A stretch of 64,000 nt of DNA, from IMG/VR virus record IMGVR_UViG_3300045988_158233, one strand, 5' to 3'. Numbering within the stretch: the first letter of the stretch is position 1; the number at the start of each line of letters is the position of its first letter. Shown here piece by piece: positions 11,725 through 56,501 of the stretch. Made by a program: the position numbers and the translations under genes. Source of the stretch: a virus. Taxonomy: Duplodnaviria; Heunggongvirae; Uroviricota; Caudoviricetes. The notes below the pieces were generated by a model. It did not search any database. It saw nothing but the letters and a program-made list of their open reading frames with translations, and was not told the origin of the DNA.

Positions 11725-11747
11725 CGATAAGTATTTACTTACTTATC
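11725..11747. promoter_or_regulatory. motif B palindrome (GATAAGTA-N6-TACTTATC)
   Basis: cgataagtatttacttacttatc directly after stop of 11426..11716. Confidence 0.4.
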
Positions 11748-11890
11748 TTTTATGTATAAGATGACTTTGTTTTCGTTGAGACGCGACTGTTTGAACTTAA
11801 ATACAAGTGCAAACGAAGAAGTCTATCTGGCAGTAGCCTAATAAGCCAAACACCAGCGAGGTCAGTTTCCAGCCTCGTTACCGAAATGGG

Positions 11891-12228
11891 ACACACTGAG
11901 CGAGTGTGATTGCAGAACGCAGGAGGGAACATTCATGTTCCCTCCGATGAAGTAACAGAATGGGCGGTTGGTATATTTTCAACTCCATATGACTCCCGGA
12001 TTCTTAGCCACTGACCGCCCATCCTGTTACGTCATTTTGTTCAATTATGTCGTTTATACTGGGTTAAAAAGCGGCGACGTAGCCCGGCTGGTATGGTTAG
12101 CCAGCACACAACGTTGAGGCCATTACATTTTTATCAATTCTAAGGTTCTATTCACAGAGATACCGGCGAGCGTTGATATGTAACATGTTGGGCAAACATT
12201 CAATCGGAGTAGTGGCCTCAACGTTGTG
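11891..12228 (+). other. structured non-coding region with three long inverted repeats
   Basis: 10-bp stem hairpin ggagggaaca-ttca-tgttccctcc (11922..11945); 17-bp arms at 11952..11968 / 12014..12030; 16-bp perfect arms at 12106..12122 / 12213..12228. Confidence 0.4.
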
Positions 12229-12491
12229 AAGACAGGATTGTTGTGTAGGTTTAACCACTGTTGCCATTGGTGCCTGTTTTCACAACAAATGATTCCATAC
12301 ATCACATTGTATAAATTACAAAGTAGGTGCTGTCCTCAAAAACATCATCTACTTAAAGATTTTGCCTACTATTGAGCGAAGTCGAAAGCGTCTGGCACTA
12401 ACGAAAAGTGCAAGTAGCGGTGCGTTTCCTGGCAGAAACTAAACCGTCGCGATTGGCACTGTTGAGTAATAAATACTGGCAGTGTCGAATT

Positions 12492-12566
12492 GATGGTGTA
12501 GCTCAGCGGTAGAGCAGTTGGCTGTTAACCAACTGGTCGGTGGTTCGAATCCACCCACCATCGCCA
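12492..12566 (+). tRNA. tRNA-Asn (GTT)
   Basis: Cloverleaf by eye: acceptor GATGGTG/CACCATC, anticodon loop CTGTTAA, T-loop TTCGAAT, 3' GCCA. Confidence 0.85.
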
Positions 12567-12571
12567 ATTTA

Positions 12572-12658
12572 GGAGAGTTAGTCCGTAGAGGTAGCGGGGT
12601 AGACTGTAAATCTACTGTCATTGCGACTCGGGTGGTTCGACTCCATCACTCCCCACCA
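12572..12658 (+). tRNA. tRNA-Tyr (GTA), class II
   Basis: Anticodon stem GTAGA/TCTAC with loop CTGTAAA, long variable arm, T-loop TTCGACT, 3' ACCA; one A-C mismatch in acceptor stem, D-arm imperfect. Confidence 0.65.
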
Positions 12659-12662
12659 AATT

Positions 12663-12738
12663 GCCGGTTTAGCTCAGTTGGTAGAGCGCCTGCCTTGTAA
12701 GCAGGATGTCAGCGGTTCGAGTCCGTTAACCGGCACCA
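12663..12738 (+). tRNA. tRNA-Thr (TGT)
   Basis: Acceptor GCCGGTT/AACCGGC, anticodon stem CCTGC/GCAGG with loop CTTGTAA, T-loop TTCGAGT, 3' ACCA. Confidence 0.85.
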
Positions 12739-12962
12739 ATACAACGATAAGATCATTACGGTTAATCGTCGTTCATGTGCACAATGACTGGTCGAAAGGT
12801 AGTGATCTTACCGTTGTGGTGGATTCGCAGACTGATGCGATAGCTTTCTTGGATGTTAGGGAAATGCGGCCGCAAATCTTCCCTTTCGCGAGCGGTGATC
12901 GTCCGTAGTCCTAATTGGCTGCACCGTATGCCGGAGATTCAGTACCGGCTATCACAACGGCC

Positions 12963-13049
12963 GGAGAGTAGGGAGCATGGTGCTCAAGCGGTCTTGAAAA
13001 CCGTCCCATTGCGCAAGCGATGATGGTTCGATTCCATTACTCTCCGCCA
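12963..13049 (+). tRNA. tRNA-Ser (TGA), class II
   Basis: Acceptor GGAGAGT/ACTCTCC perfect, anticodon loop CTTGAAA, long variable arm, T-loop TTCGATT, 3' GCCA. Confidence 0.75.
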
Positions 13050-13051
13050 GA

Positions 13052-13129
13052 CACAGCGTTGAGCGGTTTGGCCTTTTAATCAACTCGATTAAGACTCCGC
13101 TAACATAAACCAGACCGCTCAACGCTGTG
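13052..13129 (+). repeat. perfect 16-bp inverted repeat immediately after tRNA-Ser
   Basis: cacagcgttgagcggt ... accgctcaacgctgtg separated by 46 nt. Confidence 0.5.
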
Positions 13130-13234
13130 ATAGACAATTACGGCAGACGTTCTTAACCATAGCTTGCTAACATCCTAGCAACACTTTTTTTTCAGCGCAA
13201 AATTCAAAGGGGCTTCGGCCCCTTTTTGGCTGGG

Positions 13235-14455
13235 TTAATTAAAACCGAATGAATTAAGTTCTGCTTTGAATTTATCGACCATTTTTTCAACTTCGTTTAC
13301 AATTGCGTGAATCTCTTCGTCTTTTCTCGGATTAGAATTGAGGTCAAAATATGCCTTATATAAGGCATATTTTGACAAGCTTCCTTCAATATTTTCAGAG
13401 AAAATATTGGTACGACCATCAGTTAATAAGATATCAGCAGATCGGGAATTTAAATTATATTTATAGTAAATCTTTATTAGTCTGCTTATCTCTTTTTCAT
13501 TCTTGATTACCCTCTGTCTTTTACCAGCAATATTAAGACTCCAGCCTACATAACTAGTCAGATCGGAATTAAACTTACACACTTCCGCATCAGCTTTTTC
13601 CATATTTAGATTAATATTATTTCTCATGTGTAGCGGTAATTCGTTGAATTTTTGCTGTAAATGCTGTTTGCAGGGATTGTTGTAAGACCACAGAATTGCG
13701 AACGTAGCTCTTTGCATCCGGGTATTCAGATCGATGTTAAAGTTCTCACGATCACGAATCATTTCATCTACATAAAACTCTACAGCTTTTCGGTATTCTT
13801 TGTTAAAGATCTCGGTAACATACATTTCTAAATAATGGACTTTCGAGATTGCCTCATCAAAAAAAAGCTCACTCTCAAAGAAGTTGTATTTATTTAAGAG
13901 ATTAGAAAGTCTACTTAAGTCATAGGTTTTATTATTTTCAATATTAAGACCAAAAATGGCAATTAACAGACTTACTTTATGATTAATACTGCTACGTAAT
14001 TGAGCTATATAAATTCTCTTTTCATCTTCTGCTGATGACAGTAGATAAAACTCTTTATCTAAATAATTTAAAATTAGAATTATGTGATTTACATATTTAA
14101 TGTAAATAGGTTGTTTTGTTACATAATAATAAATGCTTTTGATGGAATTAATGCTCAATTTCGTATTAAACTCTTTGTCATTCAACAAAGTGTTATTTAC
14201 GTCCTCAAGTAATTTATCATGTTGCTCTAGTAATATTCCGTACCATTCCTTAAAAGAGGCTTTTTTCATTTCAAGAAGTGAATCTGCCGTTAATTGTGTT
14301 GCCTTCATTGCAGCTTTTGCACTATTTCTTGCCTCATAAGCAGCCCAAGCAGTAACAAAAGTAGCAAGTGAACCTATAGCCTCTTTGTATTCTTTAGCCA
14401 CATCCCAAAAAATAATAGTTATTACACACAATATGAGAATTAATATTAAAGGCAT
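13235..14455 (-). CDS. AT-rich membrane-anchored protein of unknown function (candidate accessory/exclusion gene)
   Basis: 406 aa, N-terminal TM helix LILILILCVITIIFW, rich in K/N/I/Y; markedly lower GC than neighbours; opposite strand to flanking genes. Confidence 0.6.
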   Translation of the reverse strand: MPLILILILCVITIIFWDVAKEYKEAIGSLATFVTAWAAYEARNSAKAAMKATQLTADSLLEMKKASFKEWYGILLEQHDKLLEDVNNTLLNDKEFNTKLSINSIKSIYYYVTKQPIYIKYVNHIILILNYLDKEFYLLSSAEDEKRIYIAQLRSSINHKVSLLIAIFGLNIENNKTYDLSRLSNLLNKYNFFESELFFDEAISKVHYLEMYVTEIFNKEYRKAVEFYVDEMIRDRENFNIDLNTRMQRATFAILWSYNNPCKQHLQQKFNELPLHMRNNINLNMEKADAEVCKFNSDLTSYVGWSLNIAGKRQRVIKNEKEISRLIKIYYKYNLNSRSADILLTDGRTNIFSENIEGSLSKYALYKAYFDLNSNPRKDEEIHAIVNEVEKMVDKFKAELNSFGFN

Positions 14456-14590
14456 GTTATCTATATCGTTAGTTAATTTTGAACATAAATGATACTTAGT
14501 CCACCGCTAAATTTCATCAAATTTGATAATTTTCTTGACGATCATGTCTCAAAATTATTTATACTTGGCATATTTGAGATATATAATAAT

Positions 14591-14610
14591 AGGTAATAAC
14601 ACACCTATCA
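14591..14610. promoter_or_regulatory. motif B-like palindrome ATAGGT-N8-ACCTAT
   Basis: ataggtaataacacacctat about 50 bp upstream of glutaredoxin ATG. Confidence 0.3.
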
Positions 14611-14661
14611 CATTTAAGCATCAACAAGATAAATTACGGACCCAGACCAGAAAGGAAACTA

Positions 14662-14910
14662 ATGAGAAATATACTTATCTACGGACGAGATAACTGCTCA
14701 TACTGCAAACGTGCGGTCGAGCTGGCGAAGAAACTAAAGGGACATGGCTACGGTGATTATGAGTACATCGACATCACCACTGCCGGTATCGATAAGGAAA
14801 AACTTAGCGAAATTGTTGGTAAACCGGTAGAGACTATCCCCCAGGTGCTGATCGATGGCCAGCCGATTGGCGGATACACAGAACTGGCTGCATACGTCAG
14901 CACCCTCTGA
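14662..14910 (+). CDS. glutaredoxin (NrdH/NrdC-like redoxin)
   Basis: 82 aa with CSYC active-site motif near N-terminus and thioredoxin-fold length; sits with RNR genes in element. Confidence 0.75.
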   Translation: MRNILIYGRDNCSYCKRAVELAKKLKGHGYGDYEYIDITTAGIDKEKLSEIVGKPVETIPQVLIDGQPIGGYTELAAYVSTL

Positions 14911-14916
14911 TTTTAA

Positions 14917-14938
14917 CGGCTCACAGGAGCCGTTTTTT
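14917..14938 (+). terminator. rho-independent terminator
   Basis: cggctc-acag-gagccg followed by TTTTTT. Confidence 0.6.
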
Positions 14939-15075
14939 ATTCCCACCAAACTCACACCTGTTTCCATTAAAATTCAAAAAACAACGCCTGAATGATTCCA
15001 TACCTACTATGTATGGAATCATTGCTGAAAATGAGTTACTTTTACTCTTGATCCTATAAGAATCTATGCCTAATA

Positions 15076-15095
15076 TACTGTTTACTTATACAGTG
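15076..15095. promoter_or_regulatory. LexA box (SOS operator) upstream of integrase
   Basis: TACTGT-ttacttat-ACAGTG fits CTGT-N8-ACAG consensus; about 27 bp upstream of int start. Confidence 0.6.
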
Positions 15096-15121
15096 CATCG
15101 GCGTAACTCGGTGATTGTCAT

Positions 15122-16225
15122 ATGAAAAATAGCTTTGACAGAGCACGCGCTGCGGAGAACACCTCAAAAGAGGCGATAGAGTATCTCGAAAGAGCATCTC
15201 AAATGCAGGCCGTTATGATCTCCCAGGTCAGCAATGACATGAGATTCTCGGACGCATTCATGTTATTCACTCGCTTATCTCTGCTGATAACCAGACGTCG
15301 GCCAGAGATCGCTGTTCATTGTATTTTGATACATGTTTTGCCGCACATTGCCGATGTAAAAGTAAGTGACATTAATAGGTTCATGGTGAACCAACTGGTC
15401 AACCCACTAATACTGGATGGCAAAATTGTTATGGGCCGCCGCGTTTTCTCTCTGATGAAGCAGTTCCTTAGCTGGTGCGCCTTCCAGGGGATGATAGACG
15501 TGTCACCGTTAAACGATATGTCACTTAACAAAGTTGCCGGTGGCGCAAAGCCCACACCTCGCGAGCGGAAGCTGACCGACGCAGAGGTATGGGTGTTCTG
15601 GAATATATGGGACTACTTCAATGTGTGTGCTGGTACAAAATGGGCGGCCAGGCTGTGTCTTGTATCAGCAAGACGACCTGACGAAGTACTGCGGGCTAAA
15701 AAAAGTGAGTTCAATCTTAAGCGTGGGGTTTGGAATCAAGGCAAGAGGAACAAATCTGCCCGTGAGCATTCTCTGCCTTTAAGCTCATTAATGCGCACTT
15801 GTATTGAAGAGTTGTTCGAATATGGTAAAGACAGCCAGTGGCTCGTGCCTTCGAATAAAAAAATCGGGAAAGACCTTCCTATGTCTAAAGTGGCAATAGC
15901 CCAGGCATTACGTCGTATTCTGGAACGACCAGAACTGATGGAGCTTGAGCCATTTACACCCCGAGATTTGCGCCGTACTGCGCGTAGTTACTTCCCAGCA
16001 TTAGGCATAAGCCAGGAGGTATCACGTAAAATCATGAACCACAGTCTTGAGGGGATAGATCGGGTCTACGACCGGCACGATTATATGGACGAGATGCGAG
16101 ACGCCTTAGAAAGTTTCTCGACGTACATCGCATCAATCGTAGAGCAACCGGATTTAGACGAAATTGACCACAAATTTAAGGGAGATCGTCTATCAACAGA
16201 GCTTATTCGTGTAAATTTTTCATAG
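15122..16225 (+). CDS. tyrosine recombinase / integrase (P4-type)
   Basis: Catalytic-region motifs LVSARRPDEV (R), HSLPL, TPRDLRRTARS, and C-terminal RVYDRHDYMDEMRDAL with tyrosine nucleophile. Confidence 0.75.
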   Translation: MKNSFDRARAAENTSKEAIEYLERASQMQAVMISQVSNDMRFSDAFMLFTRLSLLITRRRPEIAVHCILIHVLPHIADVKVSDINRFMVNQLVNPLILDGKIVMGRRVFSLMKQFLSWCAFQGMIDVSPLNDMSLNKVAGGAKPTPRERKLTDAEVWVFWNIWDYFNVCAGTKWAARLCLVSARRPDEVLRAKKSEFNLKRGVWNQGKRNKSAREHSLPLSSLMRTCIEELFEYGKDSQWLVPSNKKIGKDLPMSKVAIAQALRRILERPELMELEPFTPRDLRRTARSYFPALGISQEVSRKIMNHSLEGIDRVYDRHDYMDEMRDALESFSTYIASIVEQPDLDEIDHKFKGDRLSTELIRVNFS

Positions 16226-16606
16226 AGACTTTATGGCCTCAACAACCTTTTGTGATGCGCCTTTCTCTTTACCGAATCGCTCGTTATATGCAGCAAGAAC
16301 CTGTTTTTCGTCCTCGTTAAGAGGAGCAGTGCCTTCTTTGTATAAAAATGCTGCGAGTTCGGGTTGGCGTTCTTCCAGCACCATCATCATAAGACGACTT
16401 GGCTCAATACCCAGTGCCAGCGCCAGCGGACGAACCTTATCGATAGGCAAAGGAATTTTGCCGCTTTTAATTAAAGAAAGGTTGTTGGCGTTTTTATACC
16501 CAATTGTTTTGGCTATCTGGGCCTGGCTCATAGGTGAGGATTCAATCAACCCTGCGATAAAAGCAGCGTAGCGACTTTCTATAAATTCAATCTTGTTATC
16601 AGACAT
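16220..16606 (-). CDS. XRE-family helix-turn-helix transcriptional regulator
   Basis: HTH segment MSQAQIAKTIGYKNANNLSLIKSGK; 128 aa; 3' end overlaps integrase stop. Confidence 0.65.
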   Translation of the reverse strand: MSDNKIEFIESRYAAFIAGLIESSPMSQAQIAKTIGYKNANNLSLIKSGKIPLPIDKVRPLALALGIEPSRLMMMVLEERQPELAAFLYKEGTAPLNEDEKQVLAAYNERFGKEKGASQKVVEAIKSL

Positions 16607-16637
16607 GGTTACAACCTTTGCGCGTTCAATTCTCTCT

Positions 16638-16651
16638 GGTAAGTGCTTACC
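16638..16651. promoter_or_regulatory. motif B core palindrome GGTAAGTGCTTACC adjacent to regulator gene start
   Basis: Perfect palindrome 30-45 bp upstream of the XRE regulator ATG; same core at 39700..39720. Confidence 0.45.
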
Positions 16652-16857
16652 GATATTACATCAAAGGTTAGGGTTGTAAAGCTATTATCATTTTTTTCGA
16701 TAGGCACTTAAAAGACCGGTTAAAGGCCATTGCACGGAGAAAAATTAGCCCAAAACAGGTAAGAAAATCAACTTGCATATGATATGTATGTATTCAGTAT
16801 TGATACAAATTTTAGTAGTATTCCTTACCATAGTATAAGTTAGAATGGATTGATTGA

Positions 16858-17070: not shown

Positions 17071-17168
17071 CCCCTCTTCTCCCTGCGCGAATGGCTTAGT
17101 TCCCTGTTCGCGCAGTGCTACATTAAACACACTAGTAAATAATTTGTTTTCATAACAAAGGATTAGCC

Positions 17169-19291: not shown

Positions 19292-19314
19292 ACGATAAGT
19301 AACCACTTACGATA
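19292..19314. promoter_or_regulatory. motif B-like palindrome
   Basis: cgataagtaaccacttacgatag between CobT-like stop and CobS-like start. Confidence 0.3.
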
Positions 19315-26028: not shown

Positions 26029-26057
26029 GATAGATAATAAGTAAGTACTGATCTATC
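26029..26057. promoter_or_regulatory. motif B-like palindrome
   Basis: gatagat-aataagtaagtactg-atctatc. Confidence 0.35.
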
Positions 26058-29516: not shown

Positions 29517-29522
29517 ACACAA

Positions 29523-29550
29523 GGCGTCCACAGGACGCCTTTTTTATCTC
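29523..29550 (+). terminator. rho-independent terminator
   Basis: aggcgtcc-acag-gacgcct followed by TTTTTT. Confidence 0.6.
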
Positions 29551-29557
29551 TTGAAAA

Positions 29558-29576
29558 TATATAAGTACTTACTTAT
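29558..29576. promoter_or_regulatory. motif B-like palindrome
   Basis: atataagtacttacttat. Confidence 0.35.
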
Positions 29577-29608
29577 TATTTTCGCATAACAACCACATAG
29601 GAAAACAC

Positions 29609-30705: not shown

Positions 30706-30718
30706 AAACAATTTGTTT
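30706..30718. promoter_or_regulatory. motif A palindrome
   Basis: aaacaatttgttt about 17 bp upstream of ATG at 30735. Confidence 0.4.
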
Positions 30719-31491: not shown

Positions 31492-31706
31492 GTTTACAGT
31501 AAAATTTATATAAGTTAGTATCTACCTATCATGAAGATTTTTATTGAATACTTGTTACTCATCGTTTCAATAGCTTTTGCCATCGACTGCATTTTCACCG
31601 GTGTCATTCGTAAAGTCTTTTCCCCGGTGAACGACGTAGTCATAAACGCTTTGGCTATCGTGCTCGTATTTAATTCAGCATTTGATGTAATCAAAGAGGT
31701 GGCAGC

Positions 31707-34894: not shown

Positions 34895-35017
34895 CCCTCC
34901 AGATCGTATATTGGCGTAGATAGAATCTACGCCCCCTCAAAATAGCTCTCATAGCGTTCTACAGTGATCCTGTCTTATTTTTAGTCATACAGACAAGCAA
35001 AGTTGCGCCACGATAAA

Positions 35018-35040
35018 TAGGTATATACTTACTTATAAAT
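35018..35040. promoter_or_regulatory. motif B-like palindrome
   Basis: ataggtatatacttacttat. Confidence 0.3.
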
Positions 35041-39699: not shown

Positions 39700-39720
39700 G
39701 ATAGGTAAGTGCTTATCTAT
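39700..39720. promoter_or_regulatory. motif B palindrome upstream of nrdA
   Basis: gataggtaagtgcttatctat about 45 bp upstream of nrdA ATG. Confidence 0.4.
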
Positions 39721-39765
39721 TAACATGAGCCACTATATTTAGTGGCCCTCTTTATTTGGTGATAC

Positions 39766-42125
39766 ATGATAAGCATCGTAAAACGTAACGGCCAAACAGA
39801 GCCGTTATCCGAAGAAAAATACAACCGCGTCGTAATGTATGGCGTAGAAGGCATTCGTGGTGTAAGCGCATCCGCTGTAGCAATGGGAGCTGCGGCCAGC
39901 ATTTTTGATGGGATTACCACCAGCCAGTTGCATGAGGCTTTGGTTAAATCTGCCGCTGATTTGATCTCACCAGAAGCACCAAATTACTCACAGGTGGCTG
40001 CCCGCCTGAACATTTTTAAAATCCGCAAAGATGCCTTCGGTCGTTACGACTATCCGAACTTCTACCAACACATTGTCAAGAACGTTAACAAGGGCGTTTA
40101 TGACAAGGATTTGCTGACACATTATTCGTTTGAAGAGATCGAAGAACTCGGCAATTACATTAAGCCGAAACGTGACGATCTTTTTGGCTATGCAGCTACG
40201 GTGCAGTTGCAAAGCAAATACCTCGTTCAAAACCGTGTTACTGGTGAGATTCATGAGGGGCCGCAACATATCTATATGCTGGTAGGCATGTGTCTGTTCC
40301 AGAATTGGGAAGACGACTGCGCTGGCAAAACACGTATGGAGATGGTCAAAGGTTTCTATGACGTTACAAGTACGTTCAAACTGTCTCTGCCCACACCAAT
40401 CATGGCCGGCGTCCGTACTCCAACCCGTCAGTTCTCCAGTTGTGTGCTGATTGAGTCTGGCGATAGTCTGAAAGGGATTAGTGCAGCTTCAGCCGCAATT
40501 ATCGACTACGTTTCACGTCGTGCTGGAATTGGTATTGGTTTTGGCCGTATCCGTGCGCTGGGCAGCGAGATCCGCAATGGTGAAGCCACCCATACTGGAG
40601 TTATTCCATTCCTGAAGCATTTCCAGACGGCTGTTAAATCTTGTTCGCAAGGTGGTGTTCGTGGTGGCGCAGCAACAGCGTTTTACCCGATCTGGCATCT
40701 TGAAGTTGAAAGTCTGCTGGTGGTGAAAAATAACCGTGGTATTGATGAAAACCGCGTTCGCCATCTTGATTACGGCGTCATGAGTAACCGTCTAATGTAC
40801 CGTCGACTCGTCAGAAGCGAGAACATCACTCTGTTCAGCCCGCATGATGTGCCTGATATGTACGAAGCCTTCTTCACAGACCAGGAGCTGTTTGAAAAGC
40901 TGTACCATAAATACGAAGCCGATGATTCAATTCGCAAGAAGTCAGTACCTGCCATTGAGCTGTTCTCATCTCTGATGCAGGAACGAGCGTCCACGGGCCG
41001 AATTTATATTGCGAACGTCGATCATATTAATGAGCATGGCGCTTTCATTCCTGCTCTTGCACCTGTTCGCCAGTCAAACCTGTGTATGGAGATCACCCTA
41101 CCCACCCGTCCACTGGCATTTACCGACGACCCGAACGGTGAGATCGCGCTATGCACTTTATCCGCTTTTAACCTCGGAGCCATCCGTTCACTGGAGTCTC
41201 TTAAAGAGGTGGCGTTCTATGCCGTTGCTGCACTGGATTCGTTACTGGATTATCAAGACTATCCGATGGAGGCAGGCCGAGTTGCCCGCCACTCAAAGTT
41301 GCTTATCCGATGGAGGCAGCCGAAGTGCCTGCCAAAGCTCGTCGTAGCTTGGGAATTGGTGTAACCAACTTTGCTTATTACCTGGCAAAGAATGGCGTTC
41401 GTTATTCTGATACCGCTGGCAATAAACTGGTGCATGAAACGTTCGAAGCTATCCAGTATTACCTTCTTGATGCCAGCTGCCGACTTGCTGAAGCAAAAGG
41501 TGAGTGTGACTGGTTTGAGCAGACCAAATACGCAATTGGTCAGTTGCCGATCGACCATTACCGTTCTTCATTAGACGAAAGTGGCGAAACCAACTTTGAG
41601 TTAAAGATGCCGTGGGAAGAACTGCGTGAACGTATTGCAAAATACGGCCTTCGCAACTCCACTCTGACGGCACAAATGCCATGCGAGACTTCCAGCCAGA
41701 TCACTAATTCCACCAACGGCATCGAACCGCCTCGTGGCCCGGTGTCAGTGAAATCTTCTAAGGACGGCATCGTCAAGATGGTCGTGCCTGAGTTTGAAAA
41801 ACTGAAGGAACAGTATGAATACCTGTGGGATATGCCGGACAACCGCGGCTATCTGACAAAGGTGGCGATCATCCAGAAGTTCTTTGACCAGGCTATTTCG
41901 GCCAATACCAACTATGACCCTTCTCGCTTTGAAGGCGATAAAGTCCCAATGATGACGCTACTGTCAGATTTGCTTCTCGCCTACAAGATGGGAGTTAAAA
42001 CGCTTTACTACCACAACACCAGAGATGGTGCAGGAAAGCGTGATGACGACGAACCGCAGAATCCACTGGCGCAAGCTGTAGCCGTCGAGCCAGAAGATGA
42101 GTGCGACGGAGCCTGCAAAATCTGA
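39766..42125 (+). pseudogene. nrdA: class Ia ribonucleotide reductase alpha subunit, reading frame interrupted near 41276..41319
   Basis: Two ORFs (39766..41364 and 41310..42125) together align to full-length NrdA; 44-nt segment flanked by 16-bp direct repeats causes the frame change. Confidence 0.8.
41276..41319 (+). repeat. 44-nt insert within nrdA bounded by 16-bp direct repeat
   Basis: tatccgatggaggcag at 41260..41275 and again at 41304..41319; intervening unique 28 nt gccgagttgcccgccactcaaagttgct. Confidence 0.8.
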
Positions 42126-42187: not shown

Positions 42188-42200
42188 TAACAACTTGTTT
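42188..42200. promoter_or_regulatory. motif A palindrome (1 mismatch) upstream of nrdB
   Basis: taacaacttgttt; a second half-site ttgtttaaac at 42170. Confidence 0.35.
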
Positions 42201-43451: not shown

Positions 43452-44321
43452 ATGAACTTTACCAAACTGACTGACCACCTGAAACTTGCCACCGATCGAC
43501 TCATTGGATTTAAGCCAGAACCATATGAGTTGCATGAAGGTCATGGTGTAGCTACTGAAAGTATTTACAAGATGGTCGATCAGTTTCATGAACTCTTCCA
43601 GCATCCGAGACGCGTTATGCCGACACCAGAGCTGCTTCGTCTCCGTGCAAGCCTGATTCATGAAGAAGCTGTAGTGGAAGGTATTCCAGCCGCAATGAAT
43701 GGGGATATTGAGCAACTGCTGGATGCAATGGCCGACTTTTTATACGTTGGTGTTGGTACGATGGTCGCCATCAAAGGTGGTATTTCTACCGGCATGACCT
43801 ATTACACGCAGGAACAGAGCATTGATCGCTTTATGCAGACAATTTTTGTGCCCGGTAACACTGTTTTCGATGATATGGCAATGCCATTTCAGGAAGCTCG
43901 TGAGGCGTCATGTATGCTCGAAGAGCTGGCAGATAAACTTGAGAACAAGACTGTTAAGGATTCTGAGCTGATTCAGGAACTGCGCCGTGTCATGAACAAA
44001 ATCTATGTGGCGTGCATGATGACCTATCGACTGGCTGATTTCCTCGGTATCAATGTAGTCGAGCTGGTTGGCGAAATTCATCGGTCTAACATGACAAAAT
44101 TATGGCCTGCTGATGTCGAGGAACGTCGCCAGGCTGTGGCCAACTGCAAATACGACTCTTCAGACCTGGGATTTCGCCATGCTGATGGTACCGATAAGAT
44201 GATCGGTTTTCGAATTTCCGATGGAAAGATTCTGAAGTCTCCAACCTATAGTGATGTCGATTTATCCTCCTTTGTTGAGCAAGCTAAAGCCTCAGCAATG
44301 TACGGAATGATCAAAAAATAA
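43452..44321 (+). CDS. hypothetical protein (possibly MazG-like NTP pyrophosphohydrolase)
   Basis: Acidic helical motifs HEEAVVEG...GDIEQLLDAMADFLY; location within nucleotide-metabolism cluster. Confidence 0.35.
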   Translation: MNFTKLTDHLKLATDRLIGFKPEPYELHEGHGVATESIYKMVDQFHELFQHPRRVMPTPELLRLRASLIHEEAVVEGIPAAMNGDIEQLLDAMADFLYVGVGTMVAIKGGISTGMTYYTQEQSIDRFMQTIFVPGNTVFDDMAMPFQEAREASCMLEELADKLENKTVKDSELIQELRRVMNKIYVACMMTYRLADFLGINVVELVGEIHRSNMTKLWPADVEERRQAVANCKYDSSDLGFRHADGTDKMIGFRISDGKILKSPTYSDVDLSSFVEQAKASAMYGMIKK

Positions 44322-44464
44322 TTGTAGGTAGTTATCTATCTATGTATATTGTGTTAGCGCGTTAAATTCCTGAAACAACTATTCGTTTTGGTGGCCTATG
44401 GCCACCATTTTTTTATCTATCTGGCCTTGTTCCCTCAATAAATGTAAACTCACGTAATGAATAA

Positions 44465-45595
44465 GTGGTTACTTATCTTTGTGAGGTTTTTGTGTCACTC
44501 CTTTTGAATCGTGAGCATACGAACGGTCAGGTAACAAACGCATCGTATGCAAAAGTTATTGAGACGGTGCTTAAAAGCGGCGTGCAGGCTGATGATCGCA
44601 CAGGCACTGGTACTTTAAGCACCTGCTACGTTCCCTCTTACTACATGCTTACTGGTGGGACTGTGCCGCTTATTTCTGGAAAGGCGGTAAATCTTAAGCC
44701 ACTGCTTGTCGAACTTGAGTGGTATCTGAAAGGCACGGGCAACATCCAATTTCTCAAGGATAACGGCGTTAAGATTTGGGATGCATGGGCCGATGAGAAT
44801 GGCGATTTGGGGCCAGTTTACGGTAAGCAGTGGCGTCGATGGGAAGATACCCGCATCGTGAGCCATAGTGAATATCTGAGCAAGATCGCTACTTTCCGTG
44901 AACGCGGGTACAAAGTCGAGGGATACCTAGGTATCAGTGAAGATCGCGTAGTGCTGTCCCGTGAAATCGATCAGCTACAGCGTATTGTCGATACACTGCG
45001 CACGAACCCTACCGATCGTCGCATCATGCTTAACGCATGGAACGTAGGCGAGCTTGAGGATATGAAACTGCCACCTTGCCACTTTGTCTTCTCTTTGTGG
45101 AGTCGTGAGCTTGATTTTGAAACCCGTTTAACGATGGCAACTGACATTGGTCTTCAACACAGTCGCCTCGGTTACGAGTCTATCTACACCAAGATGCTAT
45201 ACGATCTGGAGATGGACGGCAGTGTTACTGAAGCTGAACTGGATGAACTTGGAATCCCCAAACGCATCCTCAACTCCTGCCTCGTACAGCGTAGCGTAGA
45301 CACTTTTGTTGGTATGCCATTCAATATTGCTGGCTATGGCATTCTCACTCATTTTCTCGCGAAGATTACGGGTCACATGGCCGGTGCATTTGTGCATTTT
45401 GGCTTTGACGTGCATTTGTACAATAACCACATGGAAAGTGTGCGTGAGCTAATGCAACGACAGGCTCCAGAGCATTCAGATCCGGTCGTTATATTCCCTA
45501 ATGAATGGTCTGAGCTGGATGATTTCAAATGGGACGAGATTCTTATTCTTGGCTATGCCCCTCTACCGTGGATCAAGGTTCCAGTGGCGGTGTGA
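44465..45595 (+). CDS. thyA: thymidylate synthase
   Basis: DRTGTGTLS and catalytic LPPCHF motifs; no in-frame ATG, start GTG 44465 or GTG 44492. Confidence 0.8.
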   Translation: MVTYLCEVFVSLLLNREHTNGQVTNASYAKVIETVLKSGVQADDRTGTGTLSTCYVPSYYMLTGGTVPLISGKAVNLKPLLVELEWYLKGTGNIQFLKDNGVKIWDAWADENGDLGPVYGKQWRRWEDTRIVSHSEYLSKIATFRERGYKVEGYLGISEDRVVLSREIDQLQRIVDTLRTNPTDRRIMLNAWNVGELEDMKLPPCHFVFSLWSRELDFETRLTMATDIGLQHSRLGYESIYTKMLYDLEMDGSVTEAELDELGIPKRILNSCLVQRSVDTFVGMPFNIAGYGILTHFLAKITGHMAGAFVHFGFDVHLYNNHMESVRELMQRQAPEHSDPVVIFPNEWSELDDFKWDEILILGYAPLPWIKVPVAV

Positions 45596-49145: not shown

Positions 49146-49298
49146 CGTTCCCCTACTGAAAATAAAGCCCATAGAGAGCTTTATAGTGCTGGGTAAGCCA
49201 ATCACATACCCAGCACCACAAAAACGCGCCAGAGAGCTTCTCGTTTGCATTTCTGGCGCGTTTTATTTGATTGCCATACATAAAATCAAATGCAAAAA

Positions 49299-49318
49299 TA
49301 GGTAATCACTTACCTATT
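49299..49318. promoter_or_regulatory. motif B perfect palindrome ATAGGTAA-N4-TTACCTAT
   Basis: ataggtaatcacttacctat, 10-30 bp upstream of methyltransferase ATG. Confidence 0.45.
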
Positions 49319-50084: not shown

Positions 50085-50339
50085 ATGAACCACTTTAAGG
50101 AAACCAACATGTCATACCCGACTAATGTCGTTGCGCTCGTAGAGAGCGATTTTCTGGCCCAGGCTCGTGAAATGATGAAAGATCGTGAGCAGGCCTTCAA
50201 CTTGTACGAATGGGCAATTAAGTGCTTGCATCTTGGCGAGCATCGCGAACTTGTTGAACAGCTTTTAGGTGAGTTGATCAATGAGGTGTTTGCCTTGAAT
50301 GTTCAACTACATGGTAGAGAAAATAATCAATCACAATGA
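50085..50339 (+). CDS. hypothetical small protein
   Basis: ORF; probable start ATG 50109. Confidence 0.35.
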   Translation: MNHFKETNMSYPTNVVALVESDFLAQAREMMKDREQAFNLYEWAIKCLHLGEHRELVEQLLGELINEVFALNVQLHGRENNQSQ

Positions 50340-50860
50340 TAGATAAGTACAAACTATTCATAAAGTGAATTGTAAGTGCTAAGATCTGATAGTTTCCAGT
50401 CGTAGACTGGAGGCTCGATCTGATGGGTGGGGGTAAGCGTCACTGGCGTCAGGTTTAAAAAAGCTCACTACCAGCGTAGAACCGGTGCCGTTTAGGTGTC
50501 GGGGAAGGGGGAACCAAAGTGAGCAGAGACAAGGGTCACTTTATGATTGTCGAGTCTGGGGTGTTTCGAGAGGTTGAATCCAGTACTCCCCTTCATAAAG
50601 TGTGGGAAGATCTCGGTTCTGGGGTGCTGTCATCCATAACTTCCCAAGTCTAAGCTGGCAGTAGACTTAGACCATAGCTTTTCAGGTTATGAAACGACCA
50701 GGTTGGTGAGGAATTTTATACTCACCTCCCTGGGAGAGTATTACCTGAAAAGACAACCTCTCACTTCGTTCGAGGTGAACTTCACTCACTTCGTTCGTTC
50801 AGTTCAGGTTTATAAAAACCTGTTCTGGGAAGTAATTTGTTTATTTTAATAATTATTAAC
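50340..50860 (+). other. structured non-coding region (candidate ncRNA or secondary origin)
   Basis: ~520 bp without ORF of 60 aa or more; several stem-loops, direct repeat cacttcgttcg x2, ends in alternating Pu-Py palindromes cacgcgtgtgcgcacgcg. Confidence 0.3.
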
Positions 50861-50921: not shown

Positions 50922-51515
50922 ATGACGACGAAGACACCAGCCCGATCGCAAGCAAAAACTCGCAAAAAAGACAAAAACAAAAATTCTCCCCGCACCAATC
51001 CCACAACGCCTGTCGTAGAGTTCAACCCCCAGCTTAAAACCGTGAAAATCTTTAGTGATGGCTCTTGCCTCAAAAATCCGGGTGGCCCGGGCGGTTACGG
51101 TATCGTTCTCCAGTATCGTGGTGAGGAACGCGAGTTCTCAGATGGTTTTCATAGCACCACCAATAACCGCATGGAGATGATGGGGGCACTTATCGGGCTG
51201 GAGCGTTTGAAATATCCATGCAACGTTATTTTGTACTCTGATAGCCAGTATCTGAAAAACGGCATGACACAGTGGATGAAATGGTGGAAACGTAATGGAT
51301 GGATGACTTCTGATAAAAAACCGGTAAAGAATGTTGATCTGTGGAAACGTCTGGATGAGGCCGCAAGTCGACATAATGTTCGCTGGAAGTGGGTTAAAGG
51401 TCACGCCGGGCATCGTGAAAATGAAATATGTGATCGACTCGCGAAGATCGCAGCTTTTTCCGCAGCCGATACGCCTCACAAGAAAGACATTGGTTTTATT
51501 TACAACAAGTGGTAA
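50922..51515 (+). CDS. rnhA: ribonuclease HI
   Basis: [43 protein letters not shown] match RNase HI catalytic motifs; basic N-terminal extension. Confidence 0.8.
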
Positions 51516-51533
51516 GTAAGTGTTTACCTATCA
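51512..51533. promoter_or_regulatory. motif B-like palindrome
   Basis: ggtaagtaagtgtttacctatc overlapping rnhA stop. Confidence 0.35.
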
Positions 51534-52164: not shown

Positions 52165-52353
52165 ATGAACTGGCTTTCAAATCACTTTGGGAAAATTTGG
52201 CTGGCAATTCTGGCTCTCATGGCCGCCGGTTGGGTATCCAACATTATAAAACTCGTTTGCTCAGGTGATCTCCAGTTTCAGGCTGGCATGACCTTGGCTC
52301 GTGTAGTTGGGATTTTTATTTTTCCAGTCGGTTCGGTACTTGGTTATTTCTGA
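52165..52353 (+). CDS. small membrane protein
   Basis: 62 aa, two hydrophobic helices. Confidence 0.35.
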   Translation: MNWLSNHFGKIWLAILALMAAGWVSNIIKLVCSGDLQFQAGMTLARVVGIFIFPVGSVLGYF

Positions 52354-52409
52354 CGGTTGTTAGTGCATATGCATTGACCGTCTTTGCGTAAGCAATTTAT
52401 GTAACCAGA

Positions 52410-52422
52410 AAACAATTTGTTT
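52410..52422. promoter_or_regulatory. motif A palindrome
   Basis: aaacaatttgttt about 25 bp upstream of ATG 52447. Confidence 0.4.
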
Positions 52423-52446
52423 TGACAAATAGCAAAAGGAAAACAC

Positions 52447-52872
52447 ATGTTAGGTTTCTTCAAAAAGAAAACTCGTAAAGCTGTTATCGAAGTCAAAAAA
52501 ATGGAGAACCGTGATGCGGTTGAAGCCACCGTGTGGGGCGGGTACATGATCTCCTATGCCAACGGTACATGCGATGCAAAAGAAATTTCCATTCTTGAGA
52601 AAACAATTGCAGCTCTGCCTGCATTTTCTCCTTTTGCTGGTGAGATTGCCCAGATGAGCGCCAATATCCGCGCTCAATACGAAGCCTCACCGCGCCGTGC
52701 TAATGCCCAGGCTTTACGTGAGCTGGCGGATGTGGCCGGGACTGATGATGCAGTAGATGTACTGTGTCTGTGCCTTGATATTGCCGACCAGGACGGCATT
52801 GATGAACCAGAAGAGCAGGCGCTGAAAAAGATCGCCCAGGCGCTTCAGTTGTCACTGGATGCTTATCTCTAA
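52447..52872 (+). CDS. TerB-like domain protein (tentative)
   Basis: Two TerB-type acidic motifs: YANGTCDAKEISILEKTI and IADQDGIDEPEEQALKKIAQALQLS. Confidence 0.5.
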   Translation: MLGFFKKKTRKAVIEVKKMENRDAVEATVWGGYMISYANGTCDAKEISILEKTIAALPAFSPFAGEIAQMSANIRAQYEASPRRANAQALRELADVAGTDDAVDVLCLCLDIADQDGIDEPEEQALKKIAQALQLSLDAYL

Positions 52873-53138
52873 TGCTTGAGAGATTCCGGCTTGTGACCGT
52901 CATTGCTCTTCTGGTGATGGCGGTGTTGGTGGATTTTACGGGAAAGATGATGTCTGTCATTTCTGATGGCGTCCTCATTGGTCTGGCGATCTACTTCGCT
53001 TATCCGCTAGTCCGTAAAGCAACGTGTTAATGACAAGGGCCAAATGGCCCTTGTGTTTCGTTGACCGAAATAGAGAGTTTGCACCTTTACGTTTAGCTTG
53101 CTCCCCTTTTATGCCACATCACAATAAAGCCAATAAGA

Positions 53139-53151
53139 AAACAACTTGTTT
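53139..53151. promoter_or_regulatory. motif A palindrome
   Basis: aaacaacttgttt about 19 bp upstream of ATG 53170. Confidence 0.4.
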
Positions 53152-53169
53152 AAGCATTAGGAAAAACAC

Positions 53170-53739
53170 ATGTGCAAGAAATGCAAAGCGATAGCTGATG
53201 AACAAAACGCCTTATTCGAAGAAATGGATGCTAATGAACTGGTCAAAATGTTAGCCATTCTTCGAGGAATAGAAGACGTTTCCATATTTGAGAGAGTGGT
53301 TACAGCACTTAATTTTGAGTCCACCTTTGAAGAGCCAACTCAGGTTGTAGCTTTAGCACATCATTTCGGTGTTCATTATCTTGCTGAAAAAGAGCGCGCT
53401 GATAAGTTGCAGGCGACTTTGGATATGGTGAGCGAGACTCAACGAACTGATGACACTAACAAGAGTGAGGCGATTATTGCCAGCAAAGATCGTGAAATTG
53501 CTGGGCTTAAATCCTCTCTAACGATGTTGATGTCTGCGTTCAATCTTATGTCTTCTCAGGCGGGTTATAAAATGCCATCACTAAACAGCGATGATCCGAT
53601 GGCCGTTCGTCAGCTTTTGGGAGCAATGGCCGACCAACTCGACGACACAAAGAGTCGCCTTGAAGACATGATGCGTGAGTTAAGCCATCGACATAACCTC
53701 GCAACACAACCACACAAAGTCTTTCAAAGCTCTAATTGA
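53170..53739 (+). CDS. hypothetical protein
   Basis: 189-aa ORF, N-terminal CKKC. Confidence 0.45.
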   Translation: MCKKCKAIADEQNALFEEMDANELVKMLAILRGIEDVSIFERVVTALNFESTFEEPTQVVALAHHFGVHYLAEKERADKLQATLDMVSETQRTDDTNKSEAIIASKDREIAGLKSSLTMLMSAFNLMSSQAGYKMPSLNSDDPMAVRQLLGAMADQLDDTKSRLEDMMRELSHRHNLATQPHKVFQSSN

Positions 53740-53793
53740 TCTGATATGGCCGCATGATCGGCCATATTGTGTTGATAAAAACAAGGGTGAAAA

Positions 53794-54075
53794 ATGGCAT
53801 ACGGTACAGGGATTTACAACAATAAAGGAATTAACGTTACTGGCTTCCTTACACCTATTTTTTTTCTTGATCGATTTACGGCGTCATCAGGCTCTAAGAC
53901 GTACTCTAATCCGCCACCGGGTAAATCACTACATGCCGTGTGGTCATTAATGCCTCTTAACAACGACAACTACATCAATTTACCTGTTCCAAATGTTACT
54001 ATTAATGGAAATACGGTTAGTTGGTCAAATTTATATACGGGGCTTGGTTCTTACATATACACATACTGGGGATAA
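53794..54075 (+). CDS. hypothetical protein (low GC)
   Basis: 93 aa, Asn/Thr/Gly/Tyr-rich. Confidence 0.4.
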   Translation: MAYGTGIYNNKGINVTGFLTPIFFLDRFTASSGSKTYSNPPPGKSLHAVWSLMPLNNDNYINLPVPNVTINGNTVSWSNLYTGLGSYIYTYWG

Positions 54076-54077
54076 TT

Positions 54078-54692
54078 ATGTTCGGGATGTCAATTACTCA
54101 ATCAGATGGAAGTTTGTGGATGAGTCCAGAATTTACTCCGCAAAATCTGATTAATAAAGGGACAATGTCTACATCTAAAGGTTCTGTTTTTCAAACATCA
54201 ATCCCATCAAACAAATCATGTTTTTTTTTCATAAAAAGCAGTAATAAGGCGAACATGATGTTTATTCATGAGCATAGTAACGGATACAATGCTCTCAGAT
54301 TGCATCAGGTAAATGGTAGCCCCGGAACAATAACAGTTTATGCTTTTTCTGATATGGTGTTACCACATTCTGGCTATGGCATTGCCATGTATAACAGCGC
54401 AGGCGCAATGGTGTATCACGGTGAGATGATGCCCCTTGATGCGAAACTTATCACTATTTCTGACCCTCAATTTACAATAGATATGGGGTATCCATGTGCG
54501 GTAATGCCTGCTATGGTTGGAGTATATAACTATAGACGAACCGATTACGACAGACCTGTCTATGTAACAATGACAGGTGCAACTGGAAACCAAGTATATA
54601 ACGGTCAATGGTATTCCGGTAATGTCACATGGGATATTAAGAAGATTTATACAAACAAAATTCTGGTGATAAATACCTCCAAGTATGATTAG
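54078..54692 (+). CDS. hypothetical protein (low GC) containing T9 tract
   Basis: 204 aa from ATG 54078; T9 homopolymer at 54221..54229 in coding frame. Confidence 0.45.
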   Translation: MFGMSITQSDGSLWMSPEFTPQNLINKGTMSTSKGSVFQTSIPSNKSCFFFIKSSNKANMMFIHEHSNGYNALRLHQVNGSPGTITVYAFSDMVLPHSGYGIAMYNSAGAMVYHGEMMPLDAKLITISDPQFTIDMGYPCAVMPAMVGVYNYRRTDYDRPVYVTMTGATGNQVYNGQWYSGNVTWDIKKIYTNKILVINTSKYD

Positions 54693-54758
54693 CCAATGCC
54701 TTTATTTGAAGGATTGCCTGTTTATTTCTATTTAGTACCTTTTCATTTTTGAAATAAT

Positions 54759-54793
54759 TGCACCATTAAACAAATCACTTCTTAATGGTGCAA
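54759..54793. promoter_or_regulatory. 12-bp perfect inverted repeat spanning RBS/start region of methyltransferase gene
   Basis: ttgcaccattaa ... ttaatggtgcaa separated by 10 nt, ending 3 bp before ATG 54796. Confidence 0.45.
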
Positions 54794-54795
54794 TT

Positions 54796-56481
54796 ATGAA
54801 TACAGCCCTTTCCATCATCGACGATGCCAACTCAAACACTGCTATCGACTATCGGCAGGAAATGAACGTCATCCACGAAATTGTGGCCGAGTGCGAGAAA
54901 GAGATCGCCTTCATGTATCAGGTTCACGACTTCGTTTATGGCGACGAACGCCACAACATGATTAATCGCCTGCTGAGACTAAACCATCGACCAGATGAAG
55001 ATCGCTCGCGTTTAAATCGAGGTTGGTTGGATAAAGTCGATCTGGAATGGGTGAAACAGAATATTTGGGCCGAGTACTGGAGGAAGGTCACGGACATGAC
55101 TAACGTTTTGCTGATCATGCCAGCTTCCCGTCGAGATGAGTGGCGCGAGCAGTTTATAGAGGGCAAACAGGAAGTCATCAAAACTGACAGAACCGGCTAC
55201 CAGATGAAGGTTAAAGAGTTCGTTGGTGTACCGGAGTTCAAAGCAGAAACGGTCATACCCACGATGCTTAATTTGCTGAATGACAGGCACAAATATCTCT
55301 CTGAGCGCGTGTATGGCTTGTTTAAGGCGCTGAGTCCTGCGCACAAGACAAATAAGACAAACGGTTTCAGCGAGCGTCTGATAATCGCTGACTGCATTTC
55401 TGATTTCTGGCGGGACAGCGTTAGCGTGAACTATCGCAAAGAGGACTACATCGACGATCTGCGTGTCTTGCTTCATTTCTTCGCGCACAAAGAATTTATT
55501 ACCATCAACCGCACTGCTGAGGTGCTATCAGCTGCGTATCGGGCAAACGACTGCCAGACCGGTGACTGGATGAACGTCGATGGAAATCTGATGCGCGTGA
55601 AGATGTTCAAGAACGGCAACGTTCACTTTGAAATACATCCTGACGTGGCCTGGAAGTTGAATGAGGTGCTGGCTTACAGTATGCCTGCTGCAATTCCCGC
55701 GCCATGCCGAACTGCGCCAAAAACACGGGCACCAAAGCAGTTCGGGTTAATCCAGAAGACGATCTCCGTGCCGGTTCGCACTGCGCTTCGTGACGGGCGA
55801 TTTAGCAAAGACAAAGGCGTATGGTACTTCTCTGATTCAGCTCTCCAGAAGTCGCAGGTGGAAGAGCTTGAGCGCACACTGAGCTTCATTGGCGGCGTGC
55901 AGGAGAAAAAGCACTGGCAGTTCCCGTATGAGATCGGCCATACGCTAAATACGATTGTGGCTACCGGTTTAATACCGGATACAAAATCACACCAGTTCTA
56001 CCCTACCCCACGCTTGATTGCTGAGTACGTTGCCAGAGCCACTGAATTGAAGCCTGGTGAGAAGTTGTTGGAGCCTCAAGCCGGACGTGGGGATCTTCTG
56101 GCCTATATTAACGCCGATCTGGAAGATGTTACCTGCATAGAAATCGCACCTCTCTTCGCTGATATCCTGCGTGGAAAAGGGTATACGAACACGATTTGCT
56201 GCGACTTCATAAAGTGGTCTGAGGACAACGCAGGTTATCAGTTCGACAAAATCGTTATGAACCCGCCGTACTCGCTTGGTCGTCATAGAGAGCACACGCT
56301 GGCTGCGCTGGGGCATCTGAAAGTCGGCGGGCGTCTTGTAGCAGTATTGCCGGGCACTGCGCCAATACTGGACTGGATGACGATGGATAATTACGTTTAT
56401 GCCAGAGGGAAGTCGTTTACCAACGAGTTTGAAGACACAGGGATCACAGTCAGCGTATACGTTTTCAAACGCGTTAAATGA
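54796..56481 (+). CDS. DNA methyltransferase with ~380-aa N-terminal domain of unknown function
   Basis: C-terminal SAM motif LLEPQAGRGDL followed by catalytic VMNPPYS (amino-MTase). Confidence 0.65.
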   Translation: MNTALSIIDDANSNTAIDYRQEMNVIHEIVAECEKEIAFMYQVHDFVYGDERHNMINRLLRLNHRPDEDRSRLNRGWLDKVDLEWVKQNIWAEYWRKVTDMTNVLLIMPASRRDEWREQFIEGKQEVIKTDRTGYQMKVKEFVGVPEFKAETVIPTMLNLLNDRHKYLSERVYGLFKALSPAHKTNKTNGFSERLIIADCISDFWRDSVSVNYRKEDYIDDLRVLLHFFAHKEFITINRTAEVLSAAYRANDCQTGDWMNVDGNLMRVKMFKNGNVHFEIHPDVAWKLNEVLAYSMPAAIPAPCRTAPKTRAPKQFGLIQKTISVPVRTALRDGRFSKDKGVWYFSDSALQKSQVEELERTLSFIGGVQEKKHWQFPYEIGHTLNTIVATGLIPDTKSHQFYPTPRLIAEYVARATELKPGEKLLEPQAGRGDLLAYINADLEDVTCIEIAPLFADILRGKGYTNTICCDFIKWSEDNAGYQFDKIVMNPPYSLGRHREHTLAALGHLKVGGRLVAVLPGTAPILDWMTMDNYVYARGKSFTNEFEDTGITVSVYVFKRVK

Positions 56482-56501
56482 TAGGTAAATACTTACTTAA
56501 T
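56480..56501. promoter_or_regulatory. motif B-like palindrome
   Basis: gataggtaaatacttacttaat overlapping MTase stop. Confidence 0.35.

Follow-up and report, generated by a model that had tools for sequence, protein, structure and literature searches.

Dispersed palindromes in an SSU5-like phage-plasmid of Escherichia coli: probable promoter-embedded operators with a small XRE protein as candidate repressor

What reads the palindromes that lie scattered between the genes of IMGVR_UViG_3300045988_158233, and to what end? This 64,000-nucleotide (nt) stretch of Caudoviricetes DNA, called the window below and always meant at its full length, was 97-98% identical to the E. coli SSU5-like phage-plasmids pWP4-S18-ESBL-07_2 (hereafter pWP4), phage Cyrano (pLF82) and PhiR41_1, and about 80% and 78% identical to Salmonella phage SSU5 and to Klebsiella relatives, respectively. 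On this sequence identity the window is assigned to an SSU5-like phage-plasmid of E. coli. Almost all of its genes were carried on the plus strand, and its content included parA, genes for replication, recombination and nucleotide metabolism, a gene for replication of the plasmid and several small genes. SSU5-like phage-plasmids are widespread among clinical Enterobacteria and Acinetobacter, some of them carrying resistance genes, and a query with the backbone matched 823 plasmids in PLSDB. In the searchable literature we found no account of lysis-lysogeny control in these elements, and no prior description of the palindrome or its regulon. An earlier note on this DNA had proposed that the palindromes are the many operators of a phage master repressor, as in P1 C1, possibly the XRE-type regulator encoded within the window (hereafter XRE). 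The palindrome, which we refer to as motif B, is non-random, intergenic, conserved, symmetric without covariation between its arms and overlaps promoters in one orientation, with variants specific to lineages. It is very likely a family of protein-binding operators embedded in promoters, and we give a probability of roughly 55% to the full model, in which XRE binds motif B as a repressor.

Motif B has the 22-base-pair (bp) palindromic consensus GATAGGTAAGTACTTACCTATC, in which T3, G6 and T7 do not vary. The window contained 7, 11, 12 and 21 sites at up to 4, 5, 6 and 7 mismatches, where first-order Markov shuffles gave chance expectations of 0, 0.01, 0.11 and 1.04. About 18 copies, strong and weaker, are listed for the window (Table 1), and 20-30 are present in the whole 110-kb phage-plasmid. 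Every site named in the earlier note was found, within 0-7 nt of the position given there, and the motif was far more frequent than in shuffled controls (11 sites at up to five mismatches against 0.01 expected). The list was incomplete, having overlooked the strong site at 31509 and the weaker ones at 44319, 44456 and 50338; it rated the copy at 2941 as weak when that site has just four mismatches, and it took the background to be AT-rich when the G+C content of the window is 45%. The copy at 16638, described as perfect, has perfect 6-nt arms (GGTAAG and CTTACC) around a 2-nt centre, with the outer four nt on each side poor, and the palindrome at 49299 is indeed perfect, with longer arms than the 8-4-8 arrangement claimed for it. 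Placement was evaluated on the complete plasmid pWP4, with strong sites defined by a position weight matrix score of at least 18. Of 20 such sites, 19 were centred in the 13.6% of pWP4 that is non-coding, confirming that the motif is intergenic. The late region of pWP4 also contained sites, which follow the terminase, capsid and tail genes and precede the holin gene.

Orthologous motif B sites were found in SSU5 and in Klebsiella pJN2-26, and identity within the sites (89% and 83%, respectively) exceeded that in the 40-nt flanks (75% and 73%), so that the motif is conserved in related elements. Conserved palindromes might act as RNA hairpins that terminate, process or stabilise transcripts or control translation: many motif B sites lie 0-20 nt past stop codons, some abut ribosome-binding sites or start codons, and a few are perfect enough for folding. 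If pairing in RNA maintained the symmetry, departures from the consensus would be mirrored between the arms and G.U pairs would be tolerated on the sense strand. Complementary mirror pairs were, however, no more frequent than expected from shuffled columns, numbering 163 against 168.6 +/- 4.5 in 23 E. coli sites and 190 against 189.2 +/- 2.1 in 27 Acinetobacter sites. G.T and A.C mismatches occurred equally often in the E. coli sites (25 each), and A.C mismatches in the middle of the stem were frequent. As there is neither covariation nor an excess of G.T, the symmetry reflects a symmetric protein reading double-stranded DNA. A run of T after the sites was absent, and what is conserved is the sequence itself, not the pairing. 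The covariation and mismatch-type results thus largely refute the hairpin as terminator, processing site or translational operator, which we regard as very improbable; motif B is in all likelihood a binding site in double-stranded DNA.

The position of the sites relative to promoters bears on what a bound protein would do. A -10-like hexamer at the end of the palindrome was tried as a signal of orientation and rejected, since in E. coli it was symmetric (13/22 vs 13/22) and therefore uninformative alone, and promoter-like matches were scored with a full sigma-70 -35/-10 rule, for which the random expectation was 0.022 per site. Such matches overlapped 9 of 22 E. coli sites on the gene strand and none of the 22 on the opposite strand. 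The corresponding counts were 8 vs 1 in Klebsiella, 10 vs 3 in SSU5, 7 vs 4 in Acinetobacter pDD520 and 8 vs 5 in the other Acinetobacter lineage. The downstream end of the palindrome in pDD520 had often changed from CTAATA to CTATAA-T, giving the consensus TATAAT, and the mirror change at the upstream end was seen in a single case. At sites 8210, 56480, 35016 and 11726 a TG-extended -10 lay downstream and was conserved in SSU5 and Klebsiella. Relative to the promoter the palindrome had no constant register and often covered the -10 or the start point, an arrangement that suits a repressor operator and not an activator box. Motif B, then, probably acts in repression.

An activator box of phage-specific promoters, like the T4 MotA box (at -30) or the P1 Lpa repeat, would account for the silence in lysogens of the genes behind the sites through absence of the activator. 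The group with a TG-extended -10 is compatible with this, as the -10 follows some 6-9 nt downstream, no -35 is recognisable and the centre of the palindrome falls near -30; retention of the sites by SSU5 is compatible with it too. Activator boxes, however, need a fixed geometry, whereas palindrome centres varied (approximately -19.5, -30 and -36). At near-consensus promoters such as TTGAAA-17-TATTAT (29551) the palindrome forms the spacer plus the -10, so that RNA polymerase would be blocked by a protein bound there; the transcription start of XRE lies within the site at its promoter, and some sites that abut ribosome-binding sites leave no room for a promoter at all. We consider an activator improbable, although no search aimed at MotA or AsiA homologs was made. 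A phage sigma factor was also rejected as the reader of these promoters, since a sigma-like gene was found in Acinetobacter lineages only, with sub-threshold support from Pfam, and no homolog was found in the window, pWP4, SSU5 or Klebsiella. That gene, annotated as sigma-70 family, was situated between genes for a MoxR-like ATPase and dnaE in pDD520 (lineage L018, 28810-29475) and in lineage L011 (19397-20080); the sub-threshold match was to region 2, and the gene had no counterpart in the Enterobacterial elements.

Comparison between lineages indicated where the binding protein is encoded. Two lineages from A. baumannii used two palindromes, TCAGTCAGTACTGACTGA (29 sites against 0.3 expected) and TATTAGTAAGCGCTTACTAATA (24 against 0.5), both sharing a GTnAG-N2-CTnAC core with the Enterobacterial motif. 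Different palindromes within one host species imply that the binder is encoded by the element and not by the host. A host transcription factor has nothing specific to recommend it, the sites being AT-rich palindromes in promoters; both Acinetobacter palindromes differ from the Enterobacterial one, and the presence of two versions in one host species led us to reject such a factor, for which we see next to no chance. LexA was rejected as well: motif B is unlike a LexA box, and the sole good LexA box of the window is elsewhere, at 61454 before an S24 peptidase gene, and unrelated to motif B.

Among element-encoded proteins, XRE was matched to motif B chiefly on account of the site at its own promoter. 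The predicted promoter TTTACA-16-TAATAT, with the core palindrome right after the -10 at the start point, was invariant in E. coli, pHCM2, pMT1, K. oxytoca and K. pneumoniae, five lineages among which the surrounding DNA had diverged, and degenerate sites were found upstream of XRE in both Acinetobacter lineages. An operator at the promoter of its own gene is what autoregulation would require. Cyrano encodes an XRE protein 100% identical to that of the window, and published RNA sequencing of Cyrano lysogens gave a value of 96 for XRE against a median of 9.8, about 10 times background, with the genes behind motif B sites at background (PMC9928086, S1 Table). XRE homologs were located beside the integrase gene in related plasmids of every host genus and in essentially all resident plasmids (XRE matches/backbone matches: Klebsiella 348/339, Escherichia 230/232, Enterobacter 92/92, Yersinia 63/63 and Salmonella 49/49), and the free lytic phage SSU5 was without the XRE-integrase segment. 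Across the Enterobacterial lineages that share the motif the helix-turn-helix region was nearly invariant, the whole XRE proteins being 56-66% identical. Between the two Acinetobacter lineages of differing motif XRE was 30% identical, compared to 55-75% for backbone proteins, and a protein that determines specificity should show just such divergence, beyond that of the backbone, between motif versions. Residue 39 (N, N, R) tracked GTAAG, GTAAG and GTCAG across three motif versions only and sits in the turn of the helix-turn-helix, so that its covariation with the motif is suggestive at best; a scan of IMG/VR found four versions of the helix, all in lineages with the same motif.

The predicted fold of XRE is in keeping with this role. 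Pfam HTH_19 matched at E=7.8e-4, below the gathering score, and PHROG 8, 'transcriptional regulator', at E=1.3e-11. An AlphaFold2 model, with a predicted local distance difference test score of 86-89 over residues 11-80, contained a five-helix Cro/C1-type helix-turn-helix domain followed by further helices, and Foldseek aligned the model with C.AhdI, 434 Cro and P22 c2 at a root-mean-square deviation of 1.5-1.9 A over ~62 residues, with E-values of just 0.02-0.09. A sequence search of the PDB with XRE returned no match, and Pfam identified no S24 peptidase domain, on which self-cleavage of the lambda CI type would depend. A 22-bp palindrome without RNA-type covariation would suit a protein that binds as a dimer, as proposed for XRE. 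The divergent gene beside XRE encodes an acidic protein of 70 amino acids with close homologs only, for which neither a family match nor a helix-turn-helix signature was found. The earlier picture of many operators under an element-encoded master repressor fits all of the computed evidence, with XRE as the best candidate and presumptive binder and motif B as its presumptive repressor site.

Several observations weigh against this assignment. SSU5 retains ~22 high-scoring sites without an XRE gene, and the closest XRE-carrying plasmids found were 92-96% identical to SSU5 across the XRE segment; a recent deletion would possibly explain such sites, which would fit equally well with a binder or function needed in lytic growth. 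Residues N41, S44 and K47, which look as if they contact bases, do not vary even where the motif does, in the Acinetobacter lineages, and a lineage (P0032) with the recognition helix YKYQNQVSFIKSG had sites within normal variation, counted on just five sites. A recognisable promoter overlapped just ~40% of sites. Sites 2942, 49297 and 31509 adjoin a ribosome-binding site or start codon, 11-15 nt before the start codon, and hairpins or terminators lie downstream of site 39700 and, in relatives, of the site after the capsid gene. The existence of a second dispersed palindrome (motif A, below) means that the pairing of regulator and motif is not unique. Finally, two proteins with a ParB_N domain are conserved in E. 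coli, SSU5, Klebsiella and both Acinetobacter lineages.

These two ParB_N proteins, encoded in close relatives outside the window, are the main alternative binders. Like any other protein of the element that is active in lytic growth, they might occupy the sites as KorB-like global regulators or as clamps that organise or package DNA, and not as a lysogeny repressor. In pWP4 a strong site precedes the first ParB gene by 17 nt, with an equivalent in Acinetobacter, the SSU5 sites are intact without XRE, and the variable position of sites relative to genes recalls the OB sites of KorB in IncP plasmids. Expression in the plasmid state argues against them, as the two ParB-like genes were at background in Cyrano lysogens, with values of 5.0 and 9.5 against the median of 9.8 (PMC9928086, S1 Table); being silent while the genes behind the sites are silent, they cannot maintain the silencing. 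Moreover, Pfam finds only the N-terminal domain of ParB in these proteins, the sites are gene-directed and within core promoters, as for a classical operator, and autoregulation accounts better for the conserved site at the XRE promoter. A binder of this kind is unlikely in our estimation.

Returning to repression, we postulate that a dimeric helix-turn-helix repressor encoded by the element, most likely XRE, uses motif B as its operator. Most strong sites would lie inside gene-directed promoters of the sigma-70 type, with a weak -35 in the left flank, the palindrome as the spacer and its downstream end forming or abutting the -10, or with a TG-extended -10 following instead in some sites. A bound dimer would exclude RNA polymerase, and at sites abutting ribosome-binding sites it might act as a roadblock. 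As long as the element persists as a plasmid (lysogeny), genes for replication, recombination, nucleotide metabolism, structural proteins and lysis would be silenced one promoter at a time, and XRE would restrain its own production via the weaker, core-only operator that its promoter carries at the start point. Induction of Cyrano by ciprofloxacin has been reported, and since XRE has no self-cleavage domain this must use another route. Genes that might provide one are an S24-peptidase-only gene behind the LexA box and a gene annotated in SSU5 as belonging to an antirepressor family. The LexA box, TACTGTATGCATATACAGCA, ends 17 nt before the S24-only gene, whose 129-amino-acid product has no helix-turn-helix domain and resembles UmuD or P1 HumD in type; the ortholog in Cyrano gave a value of 148 in lysogens, ~15 times background.

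With an operator motif defined, a candidate repressor named and promoters predicted, control of these phage-plasmids becomes directly testable, and motif B can serve as an easily recognised sequence marker of the regulon and perhaps of immunity groups. The missing XRE-integrase segment would explain the lytic behaviour of SSU5, a phage in biocontrol cocktails. More tentatively, the versions GTAAGT-ACTTAC, GTAAGC-GCTTAC and GTCAGT-ACTGAC could define immunity groups that decide superinfection and coexistence, each element being silenced by one small XRE protein via 20-30 co-evolving operators, a proposal whose chances we put at somewhat below even. If true, its scope would include pHCM2 of S. 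Typhi, pMT1 of Y. pestis and hundreds of Klebsiella and E. coli plasmids, and loss of the repressor module, as in SSU5, would turn a plasmid into a virulent phage.

Table 1. Motif B sites, candidate regulator and other features of the window. Coordinates are those of the window unless another element is named; the class strong or weaker refers to motif B sites, and weak marks members of the weaker class.
Feature	Coordinates	Strand	Details
Motif B site, strong	2942..2963		GATAAGTAAGTAACTACCTACC; 4 mismatches; adjoins Shine-Dalgarno and ATG (2975) of next plus-strand gene
Orthologs of site 2942	SSU5 33599; Klebsiella 74982
Motif B site, weaker	8210..8231		followed by conserved extended -10 (TGTAAGAAT); kept in SSU5 (38177) and Klebsiella (79843)
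Motif B site, weak	9081..9102		7 mismatches; good left half only
Motif B site, strong	11726..11747		promoter-like TTTACT-17-TAAGAT; upstream of tRNA cluster
tRNA cluster	12492-13049		Asn, Tyr, Thr, Ser
Variable segment	13235-14973		compared with 13902-15287 of lineage L001
Motif B site, strong	14588..14609		upstream of glutaredoxin gene (14662)
CTGT-N8-ACAG	15078-15093		29 nt before tyrosine recombinase start (15122)
XRE/Cro-C1-type helix-turn-helix protein	16220..16606	-	128 amino acids; 100% identical to CYRAN_45; candidate motif B repressor
Motif B site, weaker	16634..16655		GGTAAGTGCTTACC; weak flanks, perfect core; start point of XRE promoter; proposed autoregulatory operator
Predicted XRE promoter	16653..16680	-	TTTACA-16-TAATAT
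Motif B site, weak	19293..19314		between CobT-like and AAA ATPase genes
Motif B site, strong	26036..26057		inside promoter-like TAGATA-17-TATCAT (26031); precedes gp32-like single-stranded DNA-binding protein gene
Sigma-70 promoter-like sequence	29551..29579	+	TTGAAA-17-TATTAT; top match of the 25-40 kb region; conserved at SSU5 55694
Motif B site, strong	29556..29577		spacer and -10 of the 29551 promoter; downstream of strong recA terminator (29521-29541)
Motif B site, strong	31509..31530		inside TTTATA-16-TATCAT (31505); ATG of a small open reading frame directly after
Motif B site, strong	35016..35037		before sbcD-like gene; followed by conserved TG-extended -10
Motif B site, strong	39700..39721		best of window (3 mismatches); inside TTGATA-17-TAACAT (39698); followed by hairpin (39729-39746) and nrdA
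nrdA	39766-42125		split into two open reading frames around 41264-41307
Motif B site, weak	44319..44340		overlaps stop codon
Motif B site, weaker	44456..44477		immediately upstream of thymidylate synthase gene
Motif B site, strong	49297..49318		9-4-9 palindrome; adjoins ribosome-binding site of adenine methyltransferase gene
Motif B site, weaker	50338..50359		overlaps stop codon
Motif B site, strong	51511..51532		with TTTACC-17-TATCTT
Motif B site, strong	56480..56501		followed by conserved TGTAAGAAT
Motif A copies	491-503, 3727-3739, 17137-17149, 30706-30718, 42188-42200, 52410-52422, 53139-53151, 57679-57691		AAACAANTTGTTT
LexA box	61454-61473		TACTGTATGCATATACAGCA
S24-peptidase-only gene	61490..61879
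apbC (mrp)	61917-63017	-	host-like
metG	from ~63175	+	host-like

Motif A, the second dispersed palindrome, had eight copies at up to one mismatch in the window against 0.45 expected. Seven of the eight end 17-36 nt before a start codon (among them those of parA, a helicase, a CobT-like gene, nrdB and TerB) and the eighth 75 nt before one, and a diverged lineage from Klebsiella (L019) contained five copies. Motif A may be bound by another regulator, for example the 119-amino-acid partner of ParA, much as N15 has centromere sites spread over its genome. Together, motifs A and B give the element at least two dispersed regulatory motifs. The pattern CTGT-N8-ACAG before the tyrosine recombinase gene was found twice against 0.94 expected and is at chance level.

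The nrdA gene was split by an imperfect duplication or insertion of ~44 bp and was intact in pWP4-S18-ESBL-07_2; the split copy is either a pseudogene or an assembly error. Host-like apbC and metG on a phage-plasmid were annotated in the same way in pWP4 and Cyrano. Close relatives carried fewer or different tRNAs at the position of the tRNA cluster. The cluster lies ~770 nt downstream of the strong site at 11726 and its promoter, and the interval is free of annotated protein genes. Within the variable segment the window has no homolog of CYRAN_43, a gene for a 184-amino-acid protein at ~720 times background in Cyrano lysogens, and carries in its place a minus-strand open reading frame of 406 amino acids without a Pfam match. 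Outside the window, a gene of pWP4 (lineage L004, 5581-6105), also conserved in SSU5 and in Klebsiella relatives, encoded an FljA-like protein, with a Pfam match to 'repressor of phase-1 flagellin' at E=1.5e-84; FljA represses translation by binding RNA.

Compared to known systems, motif B differs from the T4 MotA and P1 Lpa boxes, which replace the -35 at a fixed distance from the -10, in its variable register. Dispersed palindromes also coordinate many operons in the KorB/KorA system of IncP plasmids and occur as the SopB centromere sites of N15. The element resembles these in having a dispersed palindrome on a plasmid genome, but its ParB-like genes are silent in the plasmid state and its sites lie within core promoters instead of at variable distances; motif A, with a copy before parA, is a better candidate than motif B for a dispersed site linked to partition. 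Closer in protein type are the repressors of 434, P22 (c2) and a Salmonella phage (5d4z), with which XRE shares the helix-turn-helix fold and palindromic operators over -35/-10. As in lambdoid CI/Cro switches, a weaker operator at its own promoter suggests autoregulation and the repressor gene is divergent from the lytic genes. Unlike those switches, the element has ~20-30 dispersed operators instead of two or three clustered regions, no S24 self-cleavage domain in XRE, an operator conserved over all 22 bp including its centre and a divergent gene whose product bears no helix-turn-helix signature. The repressor C1 of P1 is a 283-amino-acid protein that binds asymmetric 17-bp sites (ATTGCTCTAATAAATTT); P1 operators overlap promoters, one of them at the repressor's own gene, and P1 late genes are controlled via the activator Lpa. 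Our element, likewise a plasmid prophage, would have a single repressor acting on many promoters spread over ~100 kb, with dispersed operators that overlap promoters and one at the gene of the candidate repressor itself. It is set apart by its 128-amino-acid candidate, a Cro/C1-type protein and no C1 homolog (judged without direct comparison to the C1 sequence), by a symmetric 22-bp palindrome of unrelated sequence, which implies a dimer, and by motif B sites throughout the late structural region. The likeness to P1 C1 drawn in the earlier note therefore extends to the logic of the regulon, whereas the symmetry of the operator and the type of protein are the element's own.

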